DNA of 64,000 bases, taken from positions 7,468 to 71,467 of the forward strand of contig CAYLPZ010000006.1 of assembly GCA_964385755.1 (NCBI GenBank), given 5' to 3'. Shown here piece after piece: positions 1,423-55,542 of this stretch. Each line of letters opens with the position of its first letter. Within the stretch, counting starts at the first letter, position 1. The notes under the pieces are model-generated. The model worked only from the letters and a program-made list of their open reading frames with translations. It made no database searches and was not told where the DNA came from. The position numbers and the translations under genes were made by a program. This DNA comes from an uncultured Coprobacillus sp. Lineage in GTDB: Bacteria; Bacillota_I; Bacilli_A; ML615J-28; CAG-698.

Positions 1423-1451
1423 ATTATAGCAAACACTTATAATAATGTCTA
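1423..1451 (-). promoter_or_regulatory. Sigma-A type promoter for potA
   Basis: Minus strand TAGACA - 17 nt - TATAAT with an extended -10 TG (TGcTATAAT), about 40 nt upstream of the potA start. Confidence 0.65.
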
Positions 1452-1493: not shown

Positions 1494-1518
1494 AACCACA
1501 GGTTGTTAATCTGTGGTT
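1494..1518 (-). terminator. Intrinsic terminator after bsh
   Basis: Inverted repeat aaccacag/ctgtggtt followed by a T run on the minus strand, 15 nt after the bsh stop. Confidence 0.7.
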
Positions 1519-1533
1519 AATTTAAATTATTTA

Positions 1534-2511
1534 TTAATTTTGATAGTTGATATGTTCATTAACTAGGAGTTTATATCTTATTAAATTACTACTATCTAAG
1601 TTTTCCTTGTGCATATCAACGCAAGTTATTTGATGGTTATTATATGTTGTGTAGTAGTATAATCCTTTAGTTGCATTACAACATGATGTATAAATTGTTA
1701 TTTCATATTTTCCATTATCAACCTCACAACAACCCCTTTGTTGATCAACAGAGTTTAGAATGTGAAAAAATTGACTTACACTATCTTCTTCTATTTCTTG
1801 TGATAGAGAATTCATCTTCACAAAAGCAACACGGACAAATCTTGATTGTGATGATAAATCACCTGGAAGCCCTATTCCGCCCATTCCTCTACTATACGCA
1901 TCAAGCTCTATTTCTCTTGAAAACTTATTATCAGGATTCTTTGAACTTAAATTTCGATAATTATTTAAATTAAATAACTGTTTATCAAATGGTGGATTAT
2001 TAGTTAGCACACCAACTGGATTTTCATAAATTTTAATTCCATCTTTTGTTGATTCTAATGTGACTTTTCTATTCTCGTCCGCAATTATCCAATGAAGCTG
2101 TGCTGTTTTTAAATATTCATTATAATCCTTACTTAAAATATTAATCCTATCAAATAGTTTTACTGCTTCATCTACATTCTTAGCTTGTGATAAAACCCAT
2201 AAGATAAGCTCATATTGCGCAACGTTATCTTTTCCTAAAGCAGTTTTTTCACTATATTTTGCATTTCCAACAAAGTTTAATCCTGCCATCCCTAGTCCCT
2301 TTTCGTTGATTGCATCATAGTAAAGAGGAAAATCATCAACTACATATGCCATACCGATAATTGCATAATGATTTTTCATCTTTCCCATATTTGAATAATT
2401 AATTTCATAATTACGAGGAGTAACTGTTACCTCTTCGTTATATGAATATTCATAATCTAATGTTCTACCAAAATAAAAATCTTTTGTTTTGTAAGTTGCA
2501 GCTGTACACAT
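1534..2511 (-). CDS. bsh: Choloylglycine hydrolase / bile salt hydrolase (Ntn-hydrolase)
   Basis: N-terminal nucleophile Cys2 (MCTAATY), GRTLDYE, YYDAINEKGLGMAGLNF, LTNNPPF, GLPGDLSSQSRFVR; 325 aa. Confidence 0.92.
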   Translation of the reverse strand: MCTAATYKTKDFYFGRTLDYEYSYNEEVTVTPRNYEINYSNMGKMKNHYAIIGMAYVVDDFPLYYDAINEKGLGMAGLNFVGNAKYSEKTALGKDNVAQYELILWVLSQAKNVDEAVKLFDRINILSKDYNEYLKTAQLHWIIADENRKVTLESTKDGIKIYENPVGVLTNNPPFDKQLFNLNNYRNLSSKNPDNKFSREIELDAYSRGMGGIGLPGDLSSQSRFVRVAFVKMNSLSQEIEEDSVSQFFHILNSVDQQRGCCEVDNGKYEITIYTSCCNATKGLYYYTTYNNHQITCVDMHKENLDSSNLIRYKLLVNEHINYQN

Positions 2512-2520
2512 ATTTCACCA

Positions 2521-3996
2521 CTATTTCTTGTTATTATTACTACCAAAAATTACATCATAGTTTTTATACAAAAAGCCAAAAATCTCTTTTGAAGAAGGAG
2601 TAGTACGATTATCATTATAAAACTGTTCAAACATTGCTTTAGATAATTTTTCTACTTTTATGTCTCCCTCATAACTACTATAATTTGCATTTTCTTTTTG
2701 TTTGCTTAATACTCTCGCAATCAAATCTAAATTGACTTTGCTGTCAATTGTTTTACTCATTTCTTTTTTGTCACCATCTGTTAAAACAGTCTTATTTTTT
2801 TTCTTATCTTTTTGTTCATTTGATAATATTTCAATTTTATGTTCATCTAAGAAAACCTGAACAATATCTTCATCTTGTGCTTCAATAATATCGTCAAAAT
2901 CAATTATTCCTAAAGCTAAAACTTCCATCTTAGTATTATATGGTTCTAAACCAGCACCTAAATAATAAACTTTATAAAATCTTTCACAAAACTTATAATC
3001 ATTAGATTCAGATAATAGTTTATAACTATTAATTTCATTCATATGATTTGTGTTTAATATTTCTTCACAAAACTCACGGTATACAGTATTAATCATCTTG
3101 CTATTAAACTCATCGATTTCATTATTAAAACTACCTAATGTTGAAATAGGCTGGTAAGAGCCTGCAGGGACAACATGGATTTTATTAGGAGATTCCATTA
3201 TTTTATCGTTTCTTGCGTGAAGAATAAGATAATTTCTTTTTTGAGATGAATCTGTACGTTTTCTAACATTTTTAATAATTGTTAAACAGTTTATACCAAT
3301 ACCCGCGTGTCTATTTGTTAAATCTAAAATATCAATTTCAAGCTTTTTGTTTTTTTCTTTTGATTCATATAATAATTCTAAAGATTTACATGTATTAAGA
3401 AAATTATAATAGTTTGTTTTGTATACATCAAAAATAGGAACTTGTTTATTTTCTTCATTTATTTCTATTTTAATGTCTTTTGCGGCGTATAAATCACCAT
3501 TAAATAAATAAACAGATTTCTCATTGTGTTTTAGAAAGTTATATACATATGTTTGTTCAGATTTATTTTTGGTAAAAATATTATGATTTGGATATACTTT
3601 TAGTGAAGGTATTTTAGCATTGGTAACATATCCTTTAGATATATCATTTACTTTTACTTCTTTTAATTCTATTAATTCACTGATATTATTTATCTTAGAA
3701 TCTTTATATAATTCCCATTTTTTATCAATGATTAAACCAAAAGAATCGGTAATTTTATCTTTATATTTTTCCTCATAAAACACTTTATTTTCAATAGTGC
3801 TAAGAGAACGCATTTTGTCAACTTTTAAAAGACGACTTTTAAAACCATCTATTTTACGATCTTTACGATTGTGTATTCCTGAAATAACAAGTGAAATTAC
3901 TCCCACTAAAGCAGTCGGTAAACCAACTAATTTTAGTATTATTTCTATTGTGTTACTAAATTCTGAACAATCTAAAAAAGATAAAAACTCAAACAT
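2521..3996 (-). CDS. Membrane-anchored protein with a divergent Nudix-like domain
   Basis: One N-terminal hydrophobic helix (IILKLVGLPTALVGVISLVISGI); the C-terminal half has YLILHARN...IHVVPAGSYQP...YREFCEEIL, retaining the REUXEE end of the Nudix box. Confidence 0.55.
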   Translation of the reverse strand: MFEFLSFLDCSEFSNTIEIILKLVGLPTALVGVISLVISGIHNRKDRKIDGFKSRLLKVDKMRSLSTIENKVFYEEKYKDKITDSFGLIIDKKWELYKDSKINNISELIELKEVKVNDISKGYVTNAKIPSLKVYPNHNIFTKNKSEQTYVYNFLKHNEKSVYLFNGDLYAAKDIKIEINEENKQVPIFDVYKTNYYNFLNTCKSLELLYESKEKNKKLEIDILDLTNRHAGIGINCLTIIKNVRKRTDSSQKRNYLILHARNDKIMESPNKIHVVPAGSYQPISTLGSFNNEIDEFNSKMINTVYREFCEEILNTNHMNEINSYKLLSESNDYKFCERFYKVYYLGAGLEPYNTKMEVLALGIIDFDDIIEAQDEDIVQVFLDEHKIEILSNEQKDKKKNKTVLTDGDKKEMSKTIDSKVNLDLIARVLSKQKENANYSSYEGDIKVEKLSKAMFEQFYNDNRTTPSSKEIFGFLYKNYDVIFGSNNNKK

Positions 3997-4005
3997 TGTA
4001 TTCTC

Positions 4006-4896
4006 CTATTTATTAAATATTTTTTTATATCTTTCTTCTATTTCTTTGTATGTTGAAACGTAACATTTGAAAAATCCTTGTGTGTCTTCTTTAATTATTT
4101 TTTCTTTATTCTCTAGTTTTGCTATTTTTTCAAAATCGTATGGCCCATTTACTTTCCATCCTTGTAAAAAACCTATGTTAATTGCATCTTTTGGGCAGTA
4201 AAAAGAGCATCTCATACACATTAAACAGTTATGATGAAATTTTATTTTTCCTTTTTTATTTCGATAAATATTTTGGGTAGGACAATTTTGAATGCATTTA
4301 TCACAGTTAACACATTTATCCTTATCTACTTTATATAGAAAGGAATTTACATTTCCACCAATGTATTGTATTTTAACAACAAATGTTATAAGACGATTGA
4401 TAAGTTTATACTTCTTAATATTAGTTACATTAGAAAGAACCTCTTTAACTAATATATCTAGTAACATATCATCATATCCAAGCATTTCTTTGATTAATGG
4501 CTCTTCAAAGCGAAAATGAATATTATATGGCATAATGAAATGATATTCATTTTCAATTATTGCTTTATCTTTTCTAACCTTCTTTACAATACTAATACTT
4601 GATGCCTCATTAGCGTCATAAGTTTCTCCTGAATTTTTGTAAATAAATACTTTTTGATTAGCTAAAAACTTTTGCTTTTTAATAAACTTAACAAATGGAC
4701 AAGGAGCGTTGAAACCATAGATTGGATAACCTAAGCCTATCAAATCATAATCTTGCAAATTTAATTTTTCATAGTTAAGTGGATTGATTTCATATATATC
4801 TACCTGAACATTTTCTTTTTCTAGTTTTTGTTTTAATAATTTTGTTAAATATCTAGTATTAAATGTACCTGTGTAATATATTAACAAACATTTCAT
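4006..4896 (-). CDS. EFR1-family flavodoxin-ferredoxin protein
   Basis: Flavodoxin-like start (IYYTGTFNT, GLGYPIYGFNAP) plus two 4Fe-4S motifs, CVNCDKCIQNCP and CLMCMRCSFYCP. Confidence 0.85.
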   Translation of the reverse strand: MKCLLIYYTGTFNTRYLTKLLKQKLEKENVQVDIYEINPLNYEKLNLQDYDLIGLGYPIYGFNAPCPFVKFIKKQKFLANQKVFIYKNSGETYDANEASSISIVKKVRKDKAIIENEYHFIMPYNIHFRFEEPLIKEMLGYDDMLLDILVKEVLSNVTNIKKYKLINRLITFVVKIQYIGGNVNSFLYKVDKDKCVNCDKCIQNCPTQNIYRNKKGKIKFHHNCLMCMRCSFYCPKDAINIGFLQGWKVNGPYDFEKIAKLENKEKIIKEDTQGFFKCYVSTYKEIEERYKKIFNK

Positions 4897-4898
4897 TA

Positions 4899-5492
4899 TT
4901 AATTTTTCCTTTTTTTCTCTATTTCATATTCATAAAAGTATTTACCATACTCACCAAGGTCTTCTTTTGCTTCTTTCTTTCTTTGGTCAAGAAATGTCGT
5001 TTTCTTTAAAGTACATAAGTTAATTAATCCTCTTGCTTCCATATATTCAAATCCTCTTTTATAACCAATTGATGAAATAAGCCATTTACCATTCTCTTTA
5101 CGATATTTTACCTGGTAAATTGCGGTTCCATGTAGTTTCATCTTATATGTTTTGTGTAGCAAAAAATCCTCCAAATACCACTTTGCTTCCGCATTTTCTT
5201 CATCTAGTATATCTATCTCTCCTCCATGAATTAAATGACATGAGGGCATTTTCAAGGTCATAACGGAGCATAGAAACTTAATTATCGCATCTTTACCTTG
5301 ATAGTTCATTGTATCATTTCCATAAGATGATACCGCATCTATTGTGAAGCATGATGCTAATTCATCAAAGCATCTTTCATCTAAACATCTTTGATATTTT
5401 GCTTGCAAGTATCTTATGGCTTCAATACTTTCCAAACGATCTATTCTTTTTTCCAAGTCTTCAAGTTTTTTTATTTCTTCTACTTTATTCAT
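4899..5492 (-). CDS. NTF2-like/SnoaL-family dehydratase, BaiE-like
   Basis: IEAIRYLQAKYQRCLD, SCHLIH, AKWYLED and YRKENGKWLISSIGYKR match the pattern of bile acid 7alpha-dehydratase/SnoaL_4 proteins. Confidence 0.75.
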   Translation of the reverse strand: MNKVEEIKKLEDLEKRIDRLESIEAIRYLQAKYQRCLDERCFDELASCFTIDAVSSYGNDTMNYQGKDAIIKFLCSVMTLKMPSCHLIHGGEIDILDEENAEAKWYLEDFLLHKTYKMKLHGTAIYQVKYRKENGKWLISSIGYKRGFEYMEARGLINLCTLKKTTFLDQRKKEAKEDLGEYGKYFYEYEIEKKRKN

Positions 5493-5496
5493 AGTT

Positions 5497-6237
5497 TTAC
5501 TTTATAACCTTATTTTTATTTTTAATTTGCTTGTATAAATACAAAAAGATAATTAATAATATAATGCTAACAGTTCCAACGAAATACCAACTAGAAATTA
5601 CTGGAATACTTTTTAAAAGTGGATCATCAATCATCATTGATTTAGGAAAATGTAGTGCATCTTTTAAGAACAAACCGTAAAGCATTAAAAATGATAAGCC
5701 AATGGGATAGTTTATAAATTTACTAAATCTTGGTTTTAAATAACCAGTTGCTATACATACTATTGTTGCGTAAACCATTATTGTATGATGAAGTAGTCCA
5801 GTAAATGATCTTATATCAAAAAATGTTTGTGACTCCAAAAAGTCTGGATAACAAATTGTTAAAATTCCACCAAAAAAGCCTAAGTAAGAAATAAAATGCA
5901 AAACATTATTATCCTTTTTGCCAAAAATTAATGCAAAAGAATAAATAAAAGATGAAGTTCCACAAACGGTGTATGGTAGTAGATTAAGCCATGAATATCC
6001 TTCTCTTTTATTTACAACTACATCATAATATGTTACTGATATTCTATTTGTTAAAATAACACCTAGCAATATTATTCCAGTAATTCTCATAATTACTGTC
6101 ATTTTATTCTCATCATTCTGAACTCTTTTTGTATTAATAACGCCTATTACCATTAAAATAATACAAATAGCTAAATATAAAATATGTTCAATTCCATAAA
6201 CACCTGGATAATTTACTAAAAACATTTTTTCCTCCAT
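5497..6237 (-). CDS. YwaF/TMEM164-family integral membrane protein; likely start at the second Met (6225)
   Basis: Six to seven hydrophobic helices, LLPYTVCG (LPLHLC-like) and GLLHH; GGAGG RBS 6 nt before the ATG at 6225. Confidence 0.7.
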   Translation of the reverse strand: MEEKMFLVNYPGVYGIEHILYLAICIILMVIGVINTKRVQNDENKMTVIMRITGIILLGVILTNRISVTYYDVVVNKREGYSWLNLLPYTVCGTSSFIYSFALIFGKKDNNVLHFISYLGFFGGILTICYPDFLESQTFFDIRSFTGLLHHTIMVYATIVCIATGYLKPRFSKFINYPIGLSFLMLYGLFLKDALHFPKSMMIDDPLLKSIPVISSWYFVGTVSIILLIIFLYLYKQIKNKNKVIK

Positions 6238-6284
6238 TAATATATTATTATTTTATCATATTTTTTATCTTAATTAAAGAAAAA

Positions 6285-6301
6285 AAGGCATTAAATGCCT
6301 T
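6285..6301 (-). terminator. Terminator after thioredoxin
   Basis: aaggca-ttaaa-tgcctt hairpin followed by a T run on the minus strand. Confidence 0.55.
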
Positions 6302-6602
6302 ATAAATATTTCTTAAAGCTATCAACCAAAACATCTTTTGGAATAAATCCTACTATTCTTTCTTGCACTTTACCATCTTTTACAATTATTAAAGCAGGGA
6401 TATTTGTAATCTTATACTCCATAGCTAGTTTTGTGTTTTCATCAACATCAGCACTAATAAATTCTATTTCTGTTAGTTCTTCACTAATTTCATCAATCAC
6501 TGGCTTTAACATTTTACATGGCATACACCAAGTAGCATTAAAATCAATTACTGATACTTTTTTTTCAAAAGTTAAATTGTTTTCTTTAATTTCTCTTAAC
6601 AT
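6300..6602 (-). CDS. trxA: Thioredoxin
   Basis: IDFNATWCMPCK active site, cis-Pro loop ITNIPALI; 100 aa. Confidence 0.9.
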   Translation of the reverse strand: MLREIKENNLTFEKKVSVIDFNATWCMPCKMLKPVIDEISEELTEIEFISADVDENTKLAMEYKITNIPALIIVKDGKVQERIVGFIPKDVLVDSFKKYL

Positions 6603-6608
6603 TTATTT

Positions 6609-7478
6609 CTATCCTTTCTTTGATAAATATTGTAAACATGAAATTGCGGCAACATTTCCTTCTCCTGCTGCTTTTATGTACTGGTAAGGAGCACCCGTTA
6701 TATCTCCACAAGCAAATAAGCCTTTGATATTAGTTTCCATTTTTTTATTTGTTAACACATGTTTATCATCCATTTCTAACCCTGGAACAAGATGTGATGT
6801 TGCAACAGCACTTCGTAAAATAAATAAACCATCAAAAGTAATTTCTTCACCATTATCAACTACTAGTTTATTTGCTAGAGTAGAATTCTTATCTCCTTTT
6901 ATTTCTTTTGGTGTTACTCTTAACACTTTCACATTATCTATTTTAACATCATCAGGATATAGTGGGATATAGATCACACTTCCACATACTCCTGCAAGAT
7001 ATCTTACTTCATCTTCCTCTTCCTTGTTTGCACCAATAACAACTACTTTTTTATTTCTATATAAAAGTCCATCACATGTTGCGCAATAACTTACTCCTAA
7101 ACCTAAATATTCTTCTTCGCCAGGGTATGTTTTCACCTGAGAAACCCCCGTTGCTAAAACGACAGTTTTTGCTTCTATAAATTCATTACTTTTTGTAATA
7201 ATTGTAAAATGAGTAGAAAGATTATATATTGATATTACTTGTGAATCTTTTATTTCAATATTTAATCTCTTGACATGTTCAAACATTTTACTTGCCAACT
7301 CTTCACCACTAATTTTTGGGAATCCTAAATAATTATTGATTTCTTGGGCTTTTATCACTTTTGATGAAACATTTGTATTTCCAATTAATAAAATATCTTT
7401 ATTTCTAATTTTTAAAGTGATAGCACATTCAAGACCAGCTGGTCCTGTACCAATTATAATTGTATCTAACATAAACAC
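6609..7478 (-). CDS. trxB: Thioredoxin reductase-like flavoprotein, probably NADPH-independent (ferredoxin-linked) type
   Basis: FAD motif IIGTGPAG, GVSYCATCDG, C-terminal FACGDITG; the NADPH-binding GGGxxA and HRR motifs are absent (VIGANKEEEDE, IPLY); adjacent to trxA. Confidence 0.85.
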   Translation of the reverse strand: MFMLDTIIIGTGPAGLECAITLKIRNKDILLIGNTNVSSKVIKAQEINNYLGFPKISGEELASKMFEHVKRLNIEIKDSQVISIYNLSTHFTIITKSNEFIEAKTVVLATGVSQVKTYPGEEEYLGLGVSYCATCDGLLYRNKKVVVIGANKEEEDEVRYLAGVCGSVIYIPLYPDDVKIDNVKVLRVTPKEIKGDKNSTLANKLVVDNGEEITFDGLFILRSAVATSHLVPGLEMDDKHVLTNKKMETNIKGLFACGDITGAPYQYIKAAGEGNVAAISCLQYLSKKG

Positions 7479-23446: not shown

Positions 23447-26071
23447 CTATCTATTTTTCTTAACTTTCTTAAATAATGCTTTGATATCTTGTAATCTTAA
23501 TTTTCTCACCATAATATCTACAACAAAAAGACCTGCAGCCAATGCTAAAAACAATGCGGTAAAATCAAAAACATACTTTTGTACATTTGAAAGGTTATTT
23601 ACCAAAACAAGGTTACCATCTTCAGACACCTTACCATTCACACTTACCATATAATAAAGGTTAGATGCTTCATATATTGTAAATGCGTCATATTCTGGAA
23701 GGTATGATACATTATATTTATACTCTGCTTTATAATTTAGTTCTCCAAGAGAGTATGATAACTCAAGAACATAACTACCGACTTGGGAAGTAGAAATTTC
23801 CGTCATATATTTTTGAACATTTGCATCAATAATACTTGCTAGTATTTTTTCTTCAGATGTTCCATCGGGATATGTCACTTTAATTTTAATTAATGAATCT
23901 TTGTTTAAAGTTGGTGCAGTAACAACCACTTCTGCTATTGTTCCTTTATTGTTACATTCTAATATGAATGCAGTATCTATTCTTTCACTAGGAATATTTG
24001 TAGTTACTATGTTGCTTAATACTTGTTTTTCCTGAACACTTTCCCATAAAGATATCCAATCACCAGAGATAGTTGAAGCAAAAGAAGAAACTTTTCCATT
24101 ACCATAATCCCAATAACTATACAATGGAATATTATACTCTACATCATCAATATCTGTATATGTAGCTTGTAAAACAACCTTAGCACTTAATTTTGCACTA
24201 TTATTATAAATACCTTTTACATTATTTAAAGTAGTTATGTTATTTACAAAACTATCTTTTTCTTTAACTATTGTTACAGGCATATCCTGATTTTCAAGAA
24301 CAACTTCATTTAATGAATTAAATACTTCATTATAGATTGTATCTTTAACATCATCAACTTCATGAATATAATGATAATATCCTTTACCAATTGAAGCTAA
24401 ATCTTTCATTAGCTGAATAGCATCAAGGTCATTTGTACAAGTTTGAATAGTTGATAAAATAATATTAGCTTCTCTCATAAGCGTAGCATAACGTCGTGAT
24501 ACTGATGTTTGTTCTTTATAAGGAAGTCCATCAGATATTAAGATTACTTCATTTTTGAAGTTTTCTTGTTCTAATAACGTTTTATAAGTATATCCTAAAG
24601 CTTCGCCTAAAAATGTTCCCTGATATGCTTCATGTTTATTAATCATTTCTTTAAGTTCATTACGATTAGAAGCATCTTTTAAGGTGAAAAGAGTTTCTAC
24701 CTCACCATAAAAAACTATGCAAGATACTTTAACATCATCTTCAAGTTTATCTAAGATCTCACAAGCAGCTTTTTTCGCAATTATCAATCGCCCAACTTGT
24801 TCCATACTTCTTGAAACATCTAAAAGAATAGTAACTGTTTTATTATTATCATCATTACCAAATTTTGTTGGTAAAAGATCACTTAATGCTTGTAATACTT
24901 CATCATCTTCATTATTTTGAATATATGTATTACCTATAGTAACTAAACTCTTACAAAATTCAGAAACTAATGTATTTAAACTGCTAACTAGTTTTGTATG
25001 ATTATAGAACTTTCTTATATCAACATTGGAAATTACAAATTCATCATAAATGCACAGTTCTTCAACTGTAAAAGGTACTTCATAGTTTCCAATATAAAAT
25101 GTTATATCAGCATCAGGATATAAAGCAAGTGCTGCTTCCTTATCAGATAAGTTATCTCCTAGAAATAATACTTTTACTTTTTCTGCCACATTTTGTGCGA
25201 ATGTATAATTGTTATTTATTTCTAATTCATCATCATCAGATGTTACTGTTACTCTATAACGATGTTCCCCTGCTGTAAGTGTGTTAAGCTTAAACGCTAC
25301 ACTATTATAACCCTTTTGTAATGTTTGAGCAGTTGAGTCATATTCTTCACCATCACAAAATAGTTTGACAATTACTCTTGATTCGCTATTTGCTTGTAAA
25401 TATACACTAACACTTTCATCATAATTAATGTATGTTGAAACAGTGTAAGATACTGAATTAATTTGTACTTCTTTAGTATCTTCCTTTATATTATTATCTA
25501 AATAAATTGCATCAACATATATATCATCATTTGCAAGTGCTTCAACTATTCCAACTAAGTCACTTTCATTTGTCTCTTCGCCATCAGATATTAAAACTAT
25601 CCTTTTAATCACATTATCTGTAAATAAGTTGGAAGCAAAGGAAAGAGCAGATGCAATGTCTGTTTGACTATCATCAACTGTAGATTCTTTTACACTTTTA
25701 AGTTTTTCTCCAATGTTTACTAAAACCTGTTGATCTTTTCCAAAACAAATAACTCCTATTTTTGAATTTCTAGGACTGTTATCTTTTAGATTTTCAATGT
25801 ATTCATCAATTAAATCTAAATTTTTATTTGAAGAATAAGATACATCAGCTAAAACATAAATATTTGTTTCAGTTATTACTTTTTCATATGTTGTTTTCAC
25901 TAATGCTAAACTAACTAAAATAACGATAACTATATGTAATATGAATGAAACAATATTATTTTTAGATTTATTATCCTTATTAACAGAAATTACAAAAGAA
26001 ACAACAACAATTATCAAAAGAGCTAATAATACAAATAATAAATATGGTCTATCGAAGCTGACGTTGCTCAT
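23447..26071 (-). CDS. Membrane-anchored double-VWA domain protein; start at 26071
   Basis: MSNVSFDRPYLLF.. with two N-terminal TMs, MIDAS motifs ADVSYSS and LDVSRSM, LISDG twice, C-terminal TM. Confidence 0.85.
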   Translation of the reverse strand: MSNVSFDRPYLLFVLLALLIIVVVSFVISVNKDNKSKNNIVSFILHIVIVILVSLALVKTTYEKVITETNIYVLADVSYSSNKNLDLIDEYIENLKDNSPRNSKIGVICFGKDQQVLVNIGEKLKSVKESTVDDSQTDIASALSFASNLFTDNVIKRIVLISDGEETNESDLVGIVEALANDDIYVDAIYLDNNIKEDTKEVQINSVSYTVSTYINYDESVSVYLQANSESRVIVKLFCDGEEYDSTAQTLQKGYNSVAFKLNTLTAGEHRYRVTVTSDDDELEINNNYTFAQNVAEKVKVLFLGDNLSDKEAALALYPDADITFYIGNYEVPFTVEELCIYDEFVISNVDIRKFYNHTKLVSSLNTLVSEFCKSLVTIGNTYIQNNEDDEVLQALSDLLPTKFGNDDNNKTVTILLDVSRSMEQVGRLIIAKKAACEILDKLEDDVKVSCIVFYGEVETLFTLKDASNRNELKEMINKHEAYQGTFLGEALGYTYKTLLEQENFKNEVILISDGLPYKEQTSVSRRYATLMREANIILSTIQTCTNDLDAIQLMKDLASIGKGYYHYIHEVDDVKDTIYNEVFNSLNEVVLENQDMPVTIVKEKDSFVNNITTLNNVKGIYNNSAKLSAKVVLQATYTDIDDVEYNIPLYSYWDYGNGKVSSFASTISGDWISLWESVQEKQVLSNIVTTNIPSERIDTAFILECNNKGTIAEVVVTAPTLNKDSLIKIKVTYPDGTSEEKILASIIDANVQKYMTEISTSQVGSYVLELSYSLGELNYKAEYKYNVSYLPEYDAFTIYEASNLYYMVSVNGKVSEDGNLVLVNNLSNVQKYVFDFTALFLALAAGLFVVDIMVRKLRLQDIKALFKKVKKNR

Positions 26072-27926
26072 AGCAATACACCATCCAATCCGCAATAAAT
26101 ACAATAATTAAAATAATGAAGAATACTAATAAATCATCATATATACCATTAATATATATATCTTTGTTGTCTCCAATTAAACTTAGACTTTCAACTTCAG
26201 GGAAAGTATTACTTTCCTCTTCTGGCATATTAACATATAGTAAGAATTCTTTTGTCTCATCGCCTATTTTAATTAATACTTTATATGTACCTACTTCATT
26301 TAATTTTAATTCTGCTCTTGCAACTTTAGTACTTAAATAAGAAATATCTCCGCTTGGGCTTTCTACTCTAATACTATCAAAATTAGAAGCTACATTAATT
26401 GTGGCTATATCACCACAAACAAACATTGACTTTTCCATTATATTTGGAAATGAATAATTAAGTAAATTTCTTGATAATACAATGTAATCCATAAGTAGTG
26501 GTAAATTTGAATCATGTAGATCAAATGCGAAAACTACCTCAATATTACCAGCATCAGTTGAACCGGTAAAAATAACAGGATTACCATCGTGAGTTAATAA
26601 TGTGGTAAATTTACGATATAATCCATACTTAGCATATTTTGCTACATATATTTCATCATCATTTTTCCCTTTAACTAAGTTTTTAAATTCTGCAGTTGAA
26701 TTTTTTGGATAAGTAAGAAGCATTCCACCATTTACTGTATTTTCTTCTTGGTTTTCTTCTTCATAACCTTCTATCATCACAACATCCTGAACGCTAAAAC
26801 CAGAGCCTTCAATGTTATTCATTATACCAAATAGCCAAACTGTACCATCAGTTGGCAATTTGCTAGGTGCAAAAGAATCAAAAACATAAAGACTATATCC
26901 TGTATATTCTGTAGTATAGTTTTCTCTAGAAATAACTTCAACTGAAATATTTCCTAAAGTTTTTATTACTGATTCAATATAAAATGGACGATCACTAATT
27001 ATTAAAGCATTATATGAATGTTCTTTTTCAACATTATAAACAATGTTGATATTATCTATCATTAAATTATCTTCATTCTTAATTTCAGTTTTAATTTGCG
27101 TAAAATCTGTTTTAGTACAGATAAAGTTAAATGGAGTTTTTACACCTTTTAACGCATTTACTTCTAAAGTACTTGCTAATGTTTCATCTACATATACACA
27201 AACATTCAAAACTTCATCCTTAGAATATGAGATAACATTACCAGTAATTTTTACTGCACCTGCAATTTCTTCATACTGTGTATCAAAAATTGCATAGTTT
27301 ACTAAATCATTAGTTACATTAATTACTGTAATATTTGTTGTTTCATATTCTCTATCAGTTAATAAATAAGTATCAAGTGAAGGATTGTTATTATATAAGT
27401 TTTGAACGTAATTTATAACATTATTATAATCAACACTTGCACCGGTAGGCTCTGTTTTATTTAATAATTCAATTGCGTTTTCTTTATCAACAGATTTTTC
27501 ATACACCACTTTTGCTTTATCACCAACAAAAACTAATGTATATGTACTACCTTTTCTTGAGTCTAATATTATTTTTTCAATTTCCTTTTTCGCAAGTTCA
27601 TATTTTGATATTCCTGATTCTAAAGCATTCATACTGCCTGAACCATCTAAAATAAAACAATAATCCTTAGCTACATTAGGTATTGTAAATACTGGTTGTG
27701 ATAAAACTAAGGAAAGCAAAATAATGGCAATTATTTGTAATATTAAACTTATGATTCCACTTATTAAACTAACTTGTTTCTTACGTTTTAAAAACTTTTC
27801 ACTTAATGTCCATAAATAAGTTGATGCAACAATTTGTTCAGTATATTTATTTTTGATAATATAAATAATAATAACAATTGGCACCCCAATTAAAGCAAGT
27901 AAACCTAAAGGATATGTAAAACTCAT
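26049..27926 (-). CDS. BatA-domain/VWA protein
   Basis: BatA-type N-terminus (FTYPLGLLALIGVPIVIIIY..VASTYLW), MIDAS LDGSGSM, LLTD, C-terminal TM. Confidence 0.85.
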   Translation of the reverse strand: MSFTYPLGLLALIGVPIVIIIYIIKNKYTEQIVASTYLWTLSEKFLKRKKQVSLISGIISLILQIIAIILLSLVLSQPVFTIPNVAKDYCFILDGSGSMNALESGISKYELAKKEIEKIILDSRKGSTYTLVFVGDKAKVVYEKSVDKENAIELLNKTEPTGASVDYNNVINYVQNLYNNNPSLDTYLLTDREYETTNITVINVTNDLVNYAIFDTQYEEIAGAVKITGNVISYSKDEVLNVCVYVDETLASTLEVNALKGVKTPFNFICTKTDFTQIKTEIKNEDNLMIDNINIVYNVEKEHSYNALIISDRPFYIESVIKTLGNISVEVISRENYTTEYTGYSLYVFDSFAPSKLPTDGTVWLFGIMNNIEGSGFSVQDVVMIEGYEEENQEENTVNGGMLLTYPKNSTAEFKNLVKGKNDDEIYVAKYAKYGLYRKFTTLLTHDGNPVIFTGSTDAGNIEVVFAFDLHDSNLPLLMDYIVLSRNLLNYSFPNIMEKSMFVCGDIATINVASNFDSIRVESPSGDISYLSTKVARAELKLNEVGTYKVLIKIGDETKEFLLYVNMPEEESNTFPEVESLSLIGDNKDIYINGIYDDLLVFFIILIIVFIADWMVYCYEQRQLR

Positions 27927-28807
27927 TTCATTACCTCCATTTCAGGTAATTCTTTTAAGAATATTTCACTTATCGATTTTTCACTTGGTACAAGCATATA
28001 ATTTGCACCTCTTACACGACAATAGTTTGTGATTCTATTAATTGTATAATTTAATGCTTCATTATAAGCTTTAATAATCTCTCTATTAATATTCTTTCGA
28101 TACTCTAAGTTAATGTTTTCCGAATCATAGAAGTGAACTTTTCCACGAATTGTTGGTTTTAGTTCTTCTTTTGATAATATTTGAAAACATATTAAATCTC
28201 TTTTCTTACTAACTAAATGATCAATAGCTGTTTCGTAATCATTGTCAGTTAAAAAATCTGAAATAATAATTGACATACCATCTCCATAACCAACATTAGT
28301 TGGTAGTAAACTTTCAGTGATAAATACATCATCGCCAAATTCAATATTATTCAGTTTACCAATTTCATTATAAAAAGCTTCTTTTCCTATAATTTGTGAT
28401 ACAACTTCGTTTATCCTATTATTTCTAATTGAATAAATAGATACTCTATCCATTTCACAAATTGAGAGGTATGCCAAAGTAGCAGCAATCTTTAAAGCCA
28501 TTTCTGCCTTGTTACTTTGACCATAATCCATTGAATGACTTGCATCAATATAAATTCGTGTATGAACTTGTCTTTCATCTAAATATAGTTTAAGGTACAA
28601 TTTCTCAAGTCTACCATAACAGTTCCAATCTATCTTTGTAATATCATCTCCTGGAATATATTCACGATGATCAACAAATTCACATGATGAACCATGTATC
28701 TTACTTTGGTGATTGCCACCAAACAAGCCTTTCAAATTATTTTTAAGTATTATTTGTAAAGATTCAACCTGCTGTAAAAATTCTTCGTTGATTACATATT
28801 TACTCAT
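27923..28807 (-). CDS. DUF58 domain protein (VWA-like partner of MoxR)
   Basis: GSSCEFVDHREYIPGDDITKIDWN, LYLKLYLDER, IYIDASHSM, IIISDFL. Confidence 0.9.
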   Translation of the reverse strand: MSKYVINEEFLQQVESLQIILKNNLKGLFGGNHQSKIHGSSCEFVDHREYIPGDDITKIDWNCYGRLEKLYLKLYLDERQVHTRIYIDASHSMDYGQSNKAEMALKIAATLAYLSICEMDRVSIYSIRNNRINEVVSQIIGKEAFYNEIGKLNNIEFGDDVFITESLLPTNVGYGDGMSIIISDFLTDNDYETAIDHLVSKKRDLICFQILSKEELKPTIRGKVHFYDSENINLEYRKNINREIIKAYNEALNYTINRITNYCRVRGANYMLVPSEKSISEIFLKELPEMEVMK

Positions 28808-28812
28808 AATGC

Positions 28813-29790
28813 TTATTTAGATAATTTTTTATTCTCCTTAATTAATAATTCAATAACTTTTTCAACATTTAAATGTTCATTTACAGCACTAAAATTAATT
28901 TTTATTCTATGTCTTAAAATAGGAAATGCCAATGCATCAATATCATCAATTGAAACATTATAATTACCATTAATTAATGCACGAATTTTACTTGCGGTAA
29001 TTAAAGCTTGACAAGCACGAGGTGATGCACCATATTTGATATATTTCTTAGCTGTTTCGCTTGTTTTTTCAATTTCAGGATGAGTGTTAGCAACTAAATT
29101 CATTGCGTAATCTAAAACATCTTTCGCAATTGGTACTTCTTTCGCAATTTTTCTCATCTCTAGTATTGTTTTTCCATCAACAACTGCTTCTGCTGTTTCA
29201 TCGAGTGTAATTTGTGTCATATTTACTATATTTGCTAGTTCCTCAGGTTTTGGAAATTCCATAATAACTTTAAACATAAAACGGTCCATTTGTGCCTCAG
29301 GAAGTGGGTAAGTTCCATCTTGTTCAATTGGATTTTCAGTTGCAAGGACAAAGAATGGCTCACTCATCAAGTGAGTTTGTTTACCAACAGTAACTTTATG
29401 TTCTTGCATAACCTCTAAAAGTGATGATTGTGTCTTAGGTGTTGCACGGTTTATTTCATCGCCCAAAATAAGGTTGGCAAAGATTGGACCTTTTTGGAAA
29501 ACTGTATTCATTTTTCCATTTTCATCTTTTTCGATTATATTTGTTCCAGTTACATCAGAAGGCATTAAGTCTGGTGTAAATTGAATTCTTGAAAATGGTA
29601 AAGATAATACTCTACTTAAACTTCTTACAAGACGAGTTTTTCCTACTCCAGGAACACCTTCTAGTAAAACATTCCCTCCAGCAATTATTGCAATGATCAC
29701 GCTATCAATAACATCATCTTGTCCAACTATATCTTTATGAATCTCATTTTTTATTTTTTTTACTGTACTGCTAAAAACTTCAATTTCCAT
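28813..29790 (-). CDS. moxR: MoxR-family AAA+ ATPase (MoxR proper)
   Basis: LLEGVPGVGKT, RIQFTPDLMPSDVTG, LGDEINRATPKTQSSLLEVMQE, ATENPIEQDGTYPLPEAQMDRF, GASPRA. Confidence 0.95.
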   Translation of the reverse strand: MEIEVFSSTVKKIKNEIHKDIVGQDDVIDSVIIAIIAGGNVLLEGVPGVGKTRLVRSLSRVLSLPFSRIQFTPDLMPSDVTGTNIIEKDENGKMNTVFQKGPIFANLILGDEINRATPKTQSSLLEVMQEHKVTVGKQTHLMSEPFFVLATENPIEQDGTYPLPEAQMDRFMFKVIMEFPKPEELANIVNMTQITLDETAEAVVDGKTILEMRKIAKEVPIAKDVLDYAMNLVANTHPEIEKTSETAKKYIKYGASPRACQALITASKIRALINGNYNVSIDDIDALAFPILRHRIKINFSAVNEHLNVEKVIELLIKENKKLSK

Positions 29791-46172: not shown

Positions 46173-49100
46173 CTATAACCAAAAACGCTTTTTAATAAAT
46201 ACAAATAGCACAACTAAACTTGCTAAAGCAGTAACTGCTGTAGCAGCTAAACCTACTTTGTTAACATTAGTTGTTGGTAATGTATTAATTTCATTTACAA
46301 CATCAATATCTTCATTTAAATTACTAAAGTATTCATCAAAACCTTTTTTGAAGCTATCAACTGTTTTCGTATCAAGATATTTCTTGTCATCTCTATCAAC
46401 AATCTTTAATGCTTCAACTATTTCATAATAAGTTGAAAGTTTATTAAAGTCATATGTAGGACCAAGATTATTAATGTTTTCAATAATATGACTATAATTC
46501 TTATTAATTCTAATCATATTAATTTCATTCCATTTAGCTTCTGCGTTTTCAAGTCTTTCTAATAAACTATCAAGATATTCTTTTGTATATCCATATTGTG
46601 TTAAATCTTGAGTAACTAAATTATAAGCTGTTCTCGCATCTTTGATAATTTGTTCATCTCCAATCTTAACATCGTCAGGAATTAAACTTACTTTATCTAA
46701 ATAGTTTATTGATTTACTATCTAATGCCACATAATCACTTTTTATTACATTATCAACATTAAAATATAATCTGTAAAGCATATCTTTATATGTTTCATCT
46801 ATAGCATTTGTTGGAATAATTAGATTCATCTTTTCAGCTAAACCAATCATATCTTTAAATTGACCATAATAAAGTGGTGTTGCACCATTAAATAAGAAAT
46901 ATTTATTTAATTCTTTATAGATTTCTGAACTTGTGTCATATGATATATCATTAGTAGTGATTGTTCCTTCTAAAATTGGAGCAGTAGTTGACTTAAACTC
47001 AATAGTTTTTAGATTAACACTACCATAAAATGCCATATTACCAATTAACTTTAAAGTATCTGGGAAAATTAGTTTAATAATTCTACGATTAAAATATCCA
47101 GCATATTCACTAATTCTAACGGTATTAAATAGTACTTCATAAGTCTCTGATGGTTTTGCGGTTGGATATGCACTTAGTGAATATTTCCCGTTTTCATTTG
47201 TTGTATAAAGAACACCATCATCTAATCTTACATAATCATTTATTACACATGTATCATTTCTAGATAAATCTGTAAATCTAACTTGATTTACATTGTAGTA
47301 GAATGCTGTAGGAGCAATATACTTAACTGTACTTGGTAAGTTTATCTCACTTACCGCAATGCAGCTTAATGCCTGAGCATCAATTACTTCTACTTTTGGC
47401 ATGTATACAGCTTCAAGATTAGCACAAGATAAGAAACTACCAGGTGCAAGTTTAATGACATTTGGAAGATTAACAGTAATTAATGATTCGCATTTATTAA
47501 ATGCTTGCATCGATATTTCAATTACACTATCAAGTGATATTTCTTTTAGTGCTACACAGTTCATAAATGCTGCTTCTTTGATATATCTAACATCATTTAT
47601 TATTACACTTTGTAATTTTTCATCATCAAGAAATGTTCCTTCATTTATGCATTCTAAAATACTAGTTGTTTCAAATGTTTCTAGAGACAAACAACCAGAG
47701 AACGCATAACTTCCAATAGTATTTAAGCCCTTTCCGATTGTTACATTAGATAGCATATCTGCATAAGAGAATGCATAATCACCAATAATCTTTAGTGTAT
47801 CAGGAAGAGCAATAGCAGTTATTATATTTCCTCTTGCTTGATTTACCCCCGCAAACGCATAAGACCCAATTTCTTCAATGTTAGGAATATTAATACTTTC
47901 TAAATTTACACAGTCTGAAAAAGCATAATTACCTATTACTTTTACTTCTTCTAAATAAATATTTATTAAATTAATACATCCAAAGAAAGCTCCTTCTAAG
48001 ATTTCTTTGGTTTTTCTTAATGATACTGAACTTAAAGATTCATCATTATAAAAAGCATGAGCACCCACAGTATTTACTTCTAAATCTACACTACTTAAAT
48101 TTTTACAATTTGCAAAAGCTTCGTTTCCAAGGCTCTCAATTTTTCCTGTTACCTTTGTTAGGTTTTGACAGTCCATAAATGCAGCTTGTGAAATGATTAC
48201 ATCATCATTAAATTTAATAGATTCTAGTTTTGTTTTCGCAAAGCAATATGGAGCAAAATATAAAACCTTGTCAATATTTACACAATTTACTAATCCACTT
48301 TCTTCGAAAGCAGATTCGTTTAAAGTTACATTTTCAGCCAATATTACGTTTTCTAAATTATTGCAATTAGCAAAGGCATTACTACCAATTACTTTTACAT
48401 TAGCTAAATCAATAGAATATAGATTATCAAGTCCACTAAAAGCACCTTCATAAATCTCTTCTACTTTACTATCTAAAGTTACAAATTTATTATCTAATGC
48501 TTTTGGAGCTACTAAATATATAACTTTATTGTCTTTTGAGAGTAGATAACCACCATTAAAATTATAATATTGGTTTTCTAAAGAAACATCAAAAGTACTT
48601 AAGTTATTTGAGCCACTGAATACTTCACCATAGTTCTTAGTTATTCTTGTGTTATTATTTATTGTTACAATTTCTAAATGAGGGCAATTTGCGAAAGCAC
48701 GTTTCTCTAAAACCACATCACTATTCGGCATTGTAACTTTTTGTAAATTACTACAATTTTCAAATGCAGATTCATAAATAAATTCACAAGAAACATCTTC
48801 AAATATTACTTCTTCTAAAGCATCGCAATCATTAAATGCTTTAGAGCCAACGTATACTAAATTATTGTGAATAGTTACTTTTGTAAGTAAATCACAATTT
48901 TCGAAACAATTACTTGGGATTCTATCATTATAAATATCAAGTATAGATATACTTGTATTTGCAAACATTAAGTCAGCTAAATTTGTATATTTACCGATTA
49001 TTACCTCTTTTAAATTAATACAGTTATTGAAAGATTCAATACCACCATTAATTAATGAAGTAATGTCAACAAATGTTAAACTTTCACAATCTTTAAATGC

Positions 49101-52100
49101 TGCCTCACCAATTGCATACACGCTAGTTAAATTAACTGAAGAAAGTGCTTTACAGCCCATGAAAGCAAAAGAACCAATCAACTCAACATCATCAAGATTA
49201 ATGTCTGTTAATTTTTCATCCCCCGCAAAAGCATATTCTTTGATAAATGGACAAGATGTACCATCATTATCTTTTAAGAAATTAACTCTTTCTAGTGCTG
49301 TACAATTATAAAAAGCATATTTTCTCACTTCTTTAACATCAGCAGGGATAGTTACACTTATAACTGTATCATTTGTACAAGGAGTTTTCGCAGAATCATA
49401 ATCATCATTTTTAATTTCTATTTCATAATCTGTTGTATATAGTGAAAATGCAAAAGCACCAATGTATAAAATGCCTTCATCATCAGGGATTACTACATTT
49501 CCACCAATACCTTTATATGCTACTAATACATTACTTTCAACAATAAATTCATTTTTAACAACTACTTTTGTAGAAGCCATTAAAGTTGATTGTCTTCCTC
49601 CTACTTTTACCTTTAAAGAGATAGTCGCATTACCTTCTTTAAGAGCAGTCACTACACCATTTTCATCTACTGTCGCAACTTTTTCATTTGTAGAAGACCA
49701 AATTAGTTCATAGTCTTTTAAGTTCCAAGGTTTTAATTCATAATTTAGTTTTACCTGTTCGCTTGGATAGAATGACACAAATTCCTTATCCGTAAAGAAG
49801 AAATGATCACCAGCTTCACCAATCTCTGATTCTTCTGGTCCATTAGCAAAAGCTTTGATTGTTTCAAAGTAAGTAAAGTTAATATCTGTAAGCTTATCTG
49901 CACCAGTTTCAACTTCCTTATCTCTTACTTTAATTTTCAAATTAACTGAATAAGAATATCCATCACTTGCAAGCGCGTAACAACTAATTGTTGCAGTACC
50001 AGAACCAACTGCTTCAATTTCTCCATTATTTACTTTTATTATATTTTCATCTGATGTTGTCCATTTTAATGTTGAAAAATATTTATTTTGATTATCTACA
50101 TCACTAGAAATAGTTGGATCATCAGATGTCAACATTTCATTTAAATTTAAAATATCACCGACAGAAATATTTTTAAAATATTGATAAGTGTTACCTGATA
50201 CACTTGAGTAGTACTTTTCTTGATATTTAATGTTTTGTGAATTAGTACCTGGAAGTGTAACAAAGGCATAACTTTGATTTAATGCATAATCATCAACAAA
50301 AAATCCAAGACCATTAGATAAGTTGACATTTTTATCTTCCATTGAACTATATTGAATTAAATCCATATAATCCGTTATTTCTACAGTCACTTTTGTCTCT
50401 TCATTCTTTTCGCTATAAACAGGTATTGCGTAATCACCAAGTGATACTACTTTTCCATCAATTAATGTGAATGGTCTAATAGATTGAGTATAGTGATTAT
50501 CATATACATAAACATCAACATAATAGCGATAATCTTTTAATGATTTATCATACTTAGTGTAGAACTGTGCGTCAGTAATTGTAGGAGCTTGATAATCCAC
50601 ATAGAACGAGAATTCAAATGTGTTATTAAGATTTGTATTTAGTCCACCATCTTGATAATCAAGTTCTGCTACCATACTGAATGAATATTTTGTATTATTT
50701 TCTAAACCAAGCTCAGCAGCAGTTACATTCAATATTTCATAGTTTGGAACTATTGATCCACTAAAATATGCTTTACGAGCATCGTATTTAATATGTTCAT
50801 AAACTTCTTCACCGGTATACTCATTAATTATTTTATATGTTACCTTTTTAGCATTTCTTAAAAGACCAGCATACACTGTGGTAACTCCATTAATCGTATC
50901 TAAGTAATATCCCACAGCAGCATGCTCTTCTGATGCAGGAATCTTATCATATTTACTTTCATCAATTTCATATACATATGTTCCTAAAGGAATAACATAA
51001 CTATAATAGTATCTTCCTAAAGGAGTTGAAGCGTAATAATCAGCTTTAAGTTTATCTTCTTCATCAATTGCGCCATTATATGCTTCACTTTCAACTTCAT
51101 AGTATGTTTTATCAAACATTGGTGCAGCTGTCCAATCGCCAAAGAATGCAAGATAAGGAATTGATAAATCAATACCATCTTCATTAAGTGACTCTAAAAC
51201 ACCATAACCTTCTACATACATTCCGTTAATAAATGATTTTCTAATGTATGCTTTTTCATCATCAGTTAGTTTAATCGTATATGTAACTTTTACAGTTCCA
51301 TTTTCATTAACAGTTAGAATATCTCCATCTAATACACCATCACCTGTAATTTGTGCTAAAGTATTTGGGTTTAACATATATGCTTTTTCAGCAACGTATT
51401 CTGGGTCTGATGTTGATAAAGATTCTGTCATTGTTAAATCTGTAAGTTTATATTTTAATTTTTCATTTGATGTATTATGAACATTGAAATTAAGTACATA
51501 AACTCCAGTTTCTTCTTTATCATCTTTTAATTCTAGTTTTGGTTTTGTTTGGCCATCAACTGATAAATAAGCTTTTGTGTTAACAGCATACTCAAGATTC
51601 CCAAGACCAGATCCTTGCTTTCTAGGTGAATAAGGATTACCTTCTTCATTAAGAATAATAGTTGCGGTTGACATTAAAAGCGAGTTTGCCATATTTGTAA
51701 GTTCTGGAGAAGTCATATATGGATATCTTTCTTTTAAAGCTTGTTTTACTAAAATAACAACGCCACAAAGATTTGGGCTAGCCATAGATGTTCCAGATAT
51801 TTTATCATATCCTCCACCTGGGACAGATGAAGTAATTGATCCTCCATGAGCAGTAATTTCTGGTTTTAATGCTAAATCAGATACAGGTCCCCAGCTTGAG
51901 AAATCAGACATAAAAGGACCAGCTAGATAGCTCTTATCAAATGTAAGAGTTCCACTACTCTTAGCTGCTAGATATTCACCATCATCTTTTGAGATAGAAC
52001 AAAGTGGAATATCTAAATGACTTCCAGCATTCATATATACATCACCGGAAATATTATTATAAATAATACAACCAATCGCTCCTTGTGCTAAAGCAATTTG

Positions 52101-54681: not shown

Positions 54682-55533
54682 TTATTTAATCGAAATAATA
54701 TTACTAAACCCTGTTAGATTTAATATATCAATTATGTTTTCATTTGCGTTAATTATTTCTAATGTTTTGTTTACACATTTTTTCTTAAGTTTCAATATAA
54801 CTCGAAGACCAGCACTAGAAATATATCTTAAATCTTTCGCGTTAATAATAACACTATCCAGAATATTTGCTTCTGTTATTACTTTTTCAAATTCATCTGC
54901 ATTAGTTGCATCAACATTACCAACTAGAGTAATTAAAGTGATGTTATTATCATATGCAATGTTCATTTGATTATTATTTTCTTTTTTGTAAATTTCTTTT
55001 TTTCCAAATACTTCATCAAATTGTTGTTTTAATTCCTGATACATTTTTAAATGGTTAAAGCGTTTAAAAACTTGAAGATATTCTAAATATAGCCACTCTT
55101 GTTTTTCTTTTCCTCTTTTAAATAAACTCCAAACGCTATCACCATCTTTTTGTAAGGCATAATTAATATCTAAAATATTTGATAATTTATCAGCTAAGAT
55201 TAGCATTGCACAATCATCATCACAACTTTCTAATGCTTTTAAAGTTGTTGTTTTTCTTTCTTCCCATGTTTTTGATTTATCTTCAGTATCAAACATTACA
55301 ATGTTATATACTTTTTCACCAAATTCTTTTTTTATTACATCCGGTGATACATGAGCATCTTCTACTGTATCATGTAAAAATCCCGCCGCAACAACTTCAT
55401 TACTAGCCCCATTTTCAAGTAGTATCATTCCAACAGAAACAGGATGTAGAATATATGGAAGACCACCTTTCCTTACTTCCCCTTTATGTACATTTGAAGC
55501 AAATAACAATGCTTTACGTTTTATATCATTCAT
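54682..55533 (-). CDS. RelA/SpoT-type HD hydrolase (Mesh1/SAH-like) fused to a STAS anti-anti-sigma domain
   Basis: HKGEVRK..PYILHP, LHDTVED, ADKLSN; C-terminal GNVDATNA..YISSAGLRVIL..LTGF. Confidence 0.85.
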   Translation of the reverse strand: MNDIKRKALLFASNVHKGEVRKGGLPYILHPVSVGMILLENGASNEVVAAGFLHDTVEDAHVSPDVIKKEFGEKVYNIVMFDTEDKSKTWEERKTTTLKALESCDDDCAMLILADKLSNILDINYALQKDGDSVWSLFKRGKEKQEWLYLEYLQVFKRFNHLKMYQELKQQFDEVFGKKEIYKKENNNQMNIAYDNNITLITLVGNVDATNADEFEKVITEANILDSVIINAKDLRYISSAGLRVILKLKKKCVNKTLEIINANENIIDILNLTGFSNIISIK

Positions 55534-55542
55534 AATTAGTTA

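Follow-up and report, generated by a model that had tools for sequence, protein, structure and literature searches.

The formation of secondary bile acids is credited to a small number of Clostridia with a full bai operon. The classical operon (baiB-CD-E-A-F-G-H-I; Hylemon-Bjorkhem pathway) follows an oxidise-dehydrate-reduce logic, with the NTF2-fold protein BaiE as the 7-alpha-dehydratase and the old yellow enzyme (OYE)-type proteins BaiCD and BaiH of about 640 amino acids (aa) as redox partners. In Lactobacillus johnsonii 100-100, the gene for the bile salt hydrolase (BSH), bsh, lies in an operon with those for the transporters CbsT1 and CbsT2. BaiE-like genes outside of bai operons are usually dismissed (e.g., PMC9426597). 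A precedent for the reuse of the fold outside of these operons is SteC from Comamonas testosteroni, a BaiE-like NTF2 dehydratase which removes the 12-beta-hydroxyl group of a steroid-degradation intermediate (PMC13101464). Here we analysed a cluster of five genes, g1 to g4 and bsh (g5), on a 64-kb stretch of contig CAYLPZ010000006.1 from an uncultured Coprobacillus sp. (referred to as the window), which codes for an NTF2 dehydratase-like protein, as does the bai operon, and also for a BSH. An initial annotation had interpreted this cluster as an operon forming an uncharacterised bile acid or steroid/lipid modification unit distinct from the classical bai operon.

The cluster consists of five minus-strand open reading frames (ORFs) extending from 6237 to 1534. 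ORF and hairpin analysis reproduced the gaps of 4, 2, 9 and 9 nt between the genes and the terminators on both sides that had been claimed for it. The gene labels were examined by hidden Markov models, PDB sequence searches and fold searches, and all five (ywaF-like, BaiE-like, flavodoxin-ferredoxin, Nudix-like and bsh) were found to be correct. The full five-gene order was only detected in gut-metagenome contigs of about 99% identity from the same species (L020-L022, X1, X3), several of which are labelled as pig. A pattern scan with the alignment of the g2 family over 185,579 species-representative genomes yielded 60 loci, in 48 of which a g3 relative lies directly downstream of g2; in four more it is located elsewhere in the locus, in another four it is absent despite sufficient room, and in the last four the contig ends. 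No homologues of bsh, g1 or g4 were found by tblastn and phmmer among the 671 ORFs within 7 kb of these 60 pair loci, and none of the genes g1 to g4 occurs within 7 kb of the 80 bsh loci closest to ours (65-73% identity). The synteny expected for a five-gene unit is thus absent in relatives, and only the g2-g3 pair is conserved. Because the complete order is confined to one species, we regard the cluster as a lineage-specific mosaic operon of an uncultured low-GC Bacillota from pig gut, and the pair as the evolutionarily real unit in it. The cluster is therefore probably composed of bsh, an ancient and tightly conserved g2-g3 module and two accessory membrane proteins, g1 and g4, which by sequence comparison have no conserved link to either bsh or the pair. 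The 60 pair loci originate from metagenome-assembled genomes (MAGs) of Bacteroidales, Bacilli and Clostridia, representing three classes and two phyla. Their record titles name horse faeces, the guts of ruminants (yak, buffalo, goat) and human-gut MAG catalogues, and all source genomes with a host or sample in the title come from vertebrate guts.

The g2 product belongs to the SnoaL_4 family (PF13577, 84.3 bits) and shares about 36-40% identity with BaiE across some 140 residues. The PDB search returned the BaiE structures 4l8p, 4leh and 4l8o with E values of 2e-25 to 5e-23, while the next match only reached 3e-4, which makes the proposed likeness to BaiE both real and specific. After applying a tag offset of 19 residues for the JCSG structures, residues Y33, D38, H86, D109, Y126 and R146 of g2 were aligned with Y30, D35, H83, D106, Y126 and R146 of BaiE, and none of the six varies among the 32 aligned family members. 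According to a review (PMC11110704), Tyr30, Asp35 and His83 are the catalytic residues of BaiE, and Asp106, Tyr126 and Arg146 bind the substrate or assist in catalysis. The only one of the seven functional residues that is not kept is Tyr115, which has been proposed to stack with the adenine of coenzyme A (CoA) and is replaced by Met118 in g2. The g2 family shows an unusually high mean column identity of 68% across phyla and carries a C-terminal extension of about 45 residues that is not present in BaiE. This region (residues ~149-197, window 4899-5041) comprises a conserved part at residues 149-167 with invariant Glu152, Arg154, Asn158 and Lys164 ahead of a Lys-rich tail, and may serve to dock the g3 product.

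Searching 1.84 billion representatives with the g2 profile yielded about three full-length clusters at 50% identity with more than 240 bits (members at 240-296), after which the scores dropped to BaiE-like proteins of 160-170 aa as the nearest sequence neighbours. The cluster containing BaiE itself (57-59% identical to the PDB fragments) scored 116 bits, and this gap indicates that g2 represents a distinct sister family of BaiE rather than BaiE itself. Although the two share the SnoaL_4/NTF2 fold and the catalytic and substrate-binding residues, the g2 family was not found in any bai operon, and a g3-type protein comes next to it downstream in nearly all cases. With its degree of identity, g2 also falls below the threshold of at least 50% at which the query BaiEs were picked in PMC9426597. 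The exact g2 protein is not on record, as judged from an exact-protein look-up. SteC is the precedent for such a dehydratase acting on a steroid-ring hydroxyl group; in contrast to g2, it operates in an aerobic proteobacterial catabolic pathway, and the two are likened by description, not by sequence.

The g3 product was assigned to the EFR1 family ferredoxins (NF038196) with 122.6 bits at a cutoff of 75. The loop for binding the phosphate of flavin mononucleotide (FMN), T9-G10-T11-x-N13-T14, is invariant in the family, as are the eight cysteines of two complete [4Fe-4S] cluster motifs (C195/198/201/205 and C224/227/230/234), and the mean column identity is 70% across phyla. These features agree with the electron-carrier type proposed for the protein. 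An AlphaFold2 model (pLDDT 85) matched flavodoxin, WrbA and SsuE with its N-terminal domain in the fold search, and showed a weaker match over 277 columns to the flavodoxin-fold flavone ene-reductase FLR (7d38). FLR and the archaeal DmrX-type FMN/2x[4Fe-4S] reductases (TIGR02700) are functional analogies for g3, and a role as reductase is predicted from these rather than from homology to a characterised reductase. Our literature search retrieved neither a published function for any EFR1 family member nor a publication on the g2-g3 pair or on an NTF2-plus-ferredoxin module for bile acids.

The terminal gene of the cluster codes, as judged from its sequence, for a bona fide and canonical BSH. 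The protein scored 483.7 bits against the NCBIfam equivalog model NF038245 (cutoff 350) and matched PF02275 with an E value of 8e-105. In contrast, it only reached 230.9 against the penicillin V amidase model at a cutoff of 600, which favours BSH over penicillin V activity. It carries C2 (directly after Met1), R16, D19, N79, N171 and R224, which we take to be the key positions known from Lactobacillus BSH structures. As an N-terminal-nucleophile enzyme, it would use Cys2 to attack the amide bond of glyco- or tauro-conjugated bile salts. The protein is similar to the BSHs from Enterococcus faecalis (4wl3, E 2e-130) and Lactobacillus/Ligilactobacillus (5hke, 7sve) with all catalytic residues present, and only its genomic neighbours are unusual. 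The view that bsh is usually a stand-alone gene did not hold up, since a co-directional ORF at most 40 nt away is present upstream in 27 of 75 close relatives and downstream in 14 of 76. In a clade of ten species containing the closest bsh relatives (L093-L102, L110, L116, L128, L143), genes for a MutT-like Nudix protein (157 aa) and a Nudix-methyltransferase fusion protein (368 aa) follow directly downstream of bsh. The Nudix-fold gene in our cluster, g4, is located upstream of bsh and unrelated to these downstream genes. The adjacency of BSH and Nudix genes may be a recurrent link or a coincidence.

Of the two accessory proteins, the g1 product is a full-length match to the TMEM164/Bacillus YwaF family (PF14808; residues 14-235 of 246, 56.1 bits, cutoff 25) and showed four distinct hydrophobic segments in a crude hydropathy scan. 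Its true start is likely the second ATG at 6225, giving a protein of 242 aa, because this codon is preceded by GGAGG 5 nt upstream and the same 242-aa protein was called in the near-identical contigs L020-L022. Bacterial members of the family are uncharacterised, and to our knowledge an acyltransferase role has only been assigned to human TMEM164. A search for g1 relatives in metagenome contigs gave one distant match, which is followed by phosphate-transport genes.

Sequence searches with g4 produced no Pfam, NCBIfam or PDB match. Its AlphaFold2 model (pLDDT 82.6) was assigned by Foldseek to human NUDT22, a UDP-glucose/galactose hydrolase (5lf9, 5lor), with an E value of 6e-10, a probability of 1.0 and a TMt of 0.66; other Nudix enzymes in the Foldseek list had E values of 3e-3 or weaker. 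Both proteins have the two-domain Nudix-type fold and an RExxEE metal-binding motif, which in g4 is R307-E308-x-x-E311-E312 with E308, E311 and E312 invariant and R307 present in at least 90% of the family. Compared to the canonical Nudix box GX5EX7REUXEEXGU, the upstream Gly is 28 rather than 14 residues away, and the Pfam NUDIX family was not matched. The fold match and the motif together justify the label "Nudix-like". With human NUDT22, g4 shares only about 10% identity, and it differs from it by an N-terminal membrane anchor (residues 16-42), a long helix and a length of 491 aa. Those of its 33 homologues which we examined stand alone in unrelated neighbourhoods. A possible role of g4 as a defence gene was rejected, as the PADLOC models gave nothing for any of the five genes.

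Natural variants lacking g4 were recovered in two contigs from independent studies, X7 (a pig metagenome) and X6, in which positions 2626/2637 are joined to 3989/4000 with a 10-letter overlap. The deletion removes the 1362 nt between two copies of the direct repeat CAATGTTTGA and leaves an in-frame remnant of 37 codons between g3 and bsh. In X6, the deleted form is the deeper one (11.7) and occurs beside low-depth fragments of the full-length form, so that both forms are present in one run. Because g1 to g3 and bsh are retained in the variants, g4 is dispensable and accessory.

The conserved residues of the pair suggest how it could work. In g2, Tyr33 would act as a general acid on a ring carbonyl, and His86, tuned by Asp38, as base and acid, which would allow the elimination of water from a hydroxyl group beta or vinylogous to the ring ketone, yielding a conjugated enone or dienone as in the BaiE reaction. 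The g3 protein would then pass low-potential electrons via its two clusters to FMN and reduce the new C=C bond. The predicted net effect is a reductive dehydroxylation of a free substrate of the steroid or bile acid type that is not bound to CoA; the loss of the CoA-stacking Tyr suggests a free acid or neutral substrate. In the lineage of the window, bsh could supply deconjugated bile acids to the pair. If this model is right, the logic of the bai operon would be matched by a different type of redox partner, namely a 296-aa flavodoxin/2x[4Fe-4S] protein instead of the OYE-type BaiCD/BaiH, and in different hosts, since the pair occurs in Bacteroidales and Bacilli and the bai operon in a few Clostridia. 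In its widest form, the pair would carry out the reductive dehydroxylation of bile acids or other steroids on its own and independently of CoA, with a BaiE-type dehydratase docked to a ferredoxin-fed FMN ene-reductase, and horizontal transfer would have distributed this module among Bacteroidales, Bacilli and Clostridia in the guts of pigs, horses, ruminants and humans. We regard this wide reading as rather improbable. If it is true, the bsh neighbourhood in the window would be the first contextual clue to the substrate of the pair, and bile acid 7-dehydroxylation, or 6- or 12-dehydroxylation (e.g., towards hyodeoxycholate in pigs), would extend beyond the few Clostridia with bai operons.

The neighbours of the pair in other genomes bear on the type of chemistry. 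Genes for short-chain dehydrogenases/reductases (SDRs) are the third commonest neighbours in the family clustering (23 loci); they are present in 21 of the 55 loci with a called g2 and within two genes of the pair in 15. About ten genomes share a recurrent set around the pair, consisting of an SDR, a DUF7064/65 protein, a rifampin-phosphotransferase-like PPDK_N/PEP-utilizer kinase, HypA, HypB, a 364-aa Fer4 protein, a YqjM-like OYE ene-reductase and a second SDR (L073, L076, L079, L083, L087, L023, L052, L038, L047, L058, L077, L078, L080). The SDR neighbours, the ene-reductase with the second SDR in these genomes and the fold match of g3 to 7d38 support an enone chemistry. We rejected the SDR adjoining the pair as a recognisable hydroxysteroid dehydrogenase (HSDH), as it only gave generic SDR/FabG-like PDB matches. 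None of the bai genes (baiB, baiCD, baiA, baiF, baiG, baiH) recurs as a neighbour across the 60 g2 loci. As a separate observation, the set of kinase, HypAB, Fer4, OYE and SDR genes persists despite a change of orientation and is seen in Prevotellaceae.

Several points weigh against a role of the pair in bile acid conversion or against its coupling to bsh, on the side of the chemistry as well as of transcription. The activities of g2 and g3 are predictions from conserved residues and motifs, and the Tyr/Asp/His set of the NTF2 fold also occurs in other dehydratases of cyclic hydroxy-ketones, so that the substrate need not be a steroid. The g3 product might do no more than deliver electrons to an enzyme whose gene lies in another place. 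Moreover, the 64-kb window contains no gene for an HSDH/SDR, an OYE-type BaiCD/BaiH protein, BaiA, BaiB, BaiF, a BaiG-type transporter or a CoA ligase or transferase. This clearly sets the cluster apart from the classical bai operon, as had been claimed. It also means that the oxidation to the 3-oxo-delta4 substrate required for BaiE chemistry is not encoded nearby and would have to be contributed by enzymes encoded in another part of the genome or by other members of the community. The earlier proposal of an uncharacterised bile acid unit thus stands only in part: the cluster is operon-like, correctly labelled and not a bai operon, but its order is not conserved, g4 is dispensable, and HSDH- or BaiCD-like genes are absent from the window.

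An alternative explanation is that g2-g3 acts on a non-steroid, e.g., a plant-derived or xenobiotic cyclic hydroxy-ketone, and that its position upstream of bsh is a neutral rearrangement accident. Most occurrences of the pair are in Bacteroidales, Bacilli and Clostridia from horse, ruminant and pig guts, and it is commonest in Bacteroidales of the herbivore hindgut and rumen, where plant metabolites are as likely substrates as bile acids. It is not near bsh in any of the 60 g2 loci, no bai gene is present among the kinase, HypA/HypB, Fer4, OYE and SDR genes of the ten or so genomes sharing the recurrent set, the neighbouring SDR is generic, and the residue equivalent to BaiE Tyr115 is lost. 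On the other hand, no other characterised protein comes nearly as close to g2 as BaiE, the functional residues of BaiE including the substrate-binding Asp106 and Arg146 are invariant in the g2 family apart from this one exchange, steroid rings also serve as substrates of further NTF2 dehydratases of this kind (SteC; PMC13101464), and the source genomes with a named host or sample are all from vertebrate guts. We consider a non-steroid substrate less likely but, given the herbivore bias and the non-bai neighbours, a serious alternative. By analogy, a steroid or bile acid nucleus remains the best single guess for the substrate of the pair, based on the retained BaiE contact residues except Tyr115, the precedent of SteC and the vertebrate-gut sources.

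With regard to transcription, contigs covering bsh were present in four gut metatranscriptomes. One RNA contig (X18, 2428-2698) crosses the junction between g4 and bsh, and another one of 177 nt (X24, 3977-4153) crosses that between g3 and g4 and is the only one touching g3. No RNA contigs on g1 or g2 were obtained in the four metatranscriptomes, and a run search for the g1-g3 stretch did not find any run recorded as RNA. With a depth of only 2-3, the RNA contigs are shallow, and they may stem from DNA carry-over. Since bsh contigs were observed but none on g1 or g2, bsh may have a promoter of its own. It is thus conceivable that the cluster is not one transcript, with bsh and perhaps g4 being expressed from an internal promoter independently of g1 to g3 and without regulatory coupling to them. 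This would agree with the distribution of the RNA contigs and with the many promoter-like sites in the AT-rich DNA inside g4 (e.g., 3431..3403). However, the gap between g4 and bsh is only 9 nt, a terminator scan of the cluster gave no terminator-like site between any of the five genes, the RNA contigs run from g4 into bsh and from g3 into g4, and the lack of an assembled contig says little about the absence of a transcript. We consider separate transcripts somewhat unlikely. Co-transcription is plausible for the distal half of the cluster and weakly indicated for the whole.

The promoter scan itself was uninformative as an argument for or against internal promoters, because promoter-like sites occurred at chance frequency (67 found vs. 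65.7 expected) in this DNA of 28% G+C. For the same reason, the site upstream of g1 (6273..6244) is plausible, not evidence. In contrast, terminator-like sites were enriched in the first 9 kb of the window (6 found vs. 1.6 expected). No Rfam families or tRNAs were detected anywhere in the window, indicating that there is no riboswitch or leader. Beyond the bsh terminator, the next gene is preceded by a strong promoter-like site at 1451..1423. The coordinates of the cluster are compiled in Table 1.

Returning to the mosaic of bsh, the g2-g3 pair and two accessory membrane proteins, the opposite view that all five genes form one co-regulated pathway, deconjugating bile salts and then modifying the steroid nucleus or side chain with g1 as acyltransferase or transporter and g4 as pathway enzyme, is improbable: the gaps of 2-9 nt on one strand between flanking terminators, the presence of a BaiE-like enzyme and a BSH in the same cluster, the RNA contigs over two junctions and the Nudix genes next to bsh in the related clade are in its favour, but the order is not kept beyond one species, natural variants without g4 keep the other four genes, relatives of g1 and g4 occur in unrelated neighbourhoods, and there is no oxidoreductase for a 3-oxo-delta4 substrate nearby.

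The real lead provided by the cluster is the uncharacterised BaiE-like/EFR1 pair, with bile acids as plausible candidate substrates and a putative role in bile acid metabolism beyond deconjugation. It shows that one sister family of BaiE has kept the catalytic and substrate-binding set of BaiE, except for Tyr115, and that dozens of uncultured gut species have it tied to a flavodoxin-ferredoxin partner. Should bile acids or steroids be the substrates of the pair, more organisms would shape the bile acid pool in livestock and humans than assumed. If they are not, annotation pipelines which count BaiE-like matches or read tight spacing as a pathway would over-call bile acid metabolism.

Table 1. 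Features of the five-gene cluster, listed in the direction of transcription (window coordinates).
Feature	Position	Strand	Remarks
Terminator hairpin of the upstream thioredoxin gene, upstream boundary of the cluster	6285..6301	-	7-bp stem, U-run, -7.0 kcal/mol, z -2.25
Candidate promoter-like site, TTAAGA-18-AATAAT	6244..6273	-	9/12 positions match; 60-nt AT-rich spacer before g1
g1, TMEM164/YwaF-family polytopic membrane protein, 246 aa	5497..6237	-	PF14808
g2, BaiE-like NTF2/SnoaL_4 protein, predicted dehydratase, 197 aa	4899..5492	-	PF13577, PDB BaiE matches
g3, EFR1-family protein with flavodoxin-like domain and two-[4Fe-4S] ferredoxin domain, 296 aa	4006..4896	-	NF038196
Direct repeat CAATGTTTGA, copy 1, spanning the g4 start codon	3989..3998	-	One end of the g4 deletion
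g4, membrane-anchored NUDT22-like Nudix-fold protein, 491 aa, accessory	2521..3996	-	Foldseek
Direct repeat CAATGTTTGA, copy 2, in the 3' end of g4	2627..2636	-	Other end of the g4 deletion
g5 (bsh), bile salt hydrolase (choloylglycine hydrolase), 325 aa	1534..2511	-	NF038245, PF02275
Intrinsic terminator after bsh, downstream boundary of the cluster	1494..1518	-	8-bp G+C-containing stem, UUUUUUU, -12.3 kcal/mol, z -4.55

The G+C contents of all five genes are within the range of the window, which identifies the genes as native, and an origin of the cluster as a horizontally acquired island was rejected on these grounds. Directly upstream, genes for a thioredoxin reductase-like protein and a thioredoxin are located at window positions 6300-7478, and both are covered by metatranscriptome contigs in X18. 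Read-through from these genes into the cluster past the weak 7-bp terminator is possible. Further neighbours in the window code for a CNNM transporter, surface proteins, a MoxR-VWA-BatA set and an Opp system. The CNNM/CorC-type transporter gene (8420-9820) has no relative of more than 40% identity among the 185,579 species-representative genomes, indicating that the source lineage is poorly represented in reference collections. More distant parts of the window contain a set of MoxR AAA, DUF58, BatA/VWA and VWA genes (23447-29790), an ORF of 2487 aa (46173-53636), and a partner-switching-like set coding for a SpoIIE-type phosphatase, a STAS-APH kinase-like protein and an HD-STAS protein (54682-58387).

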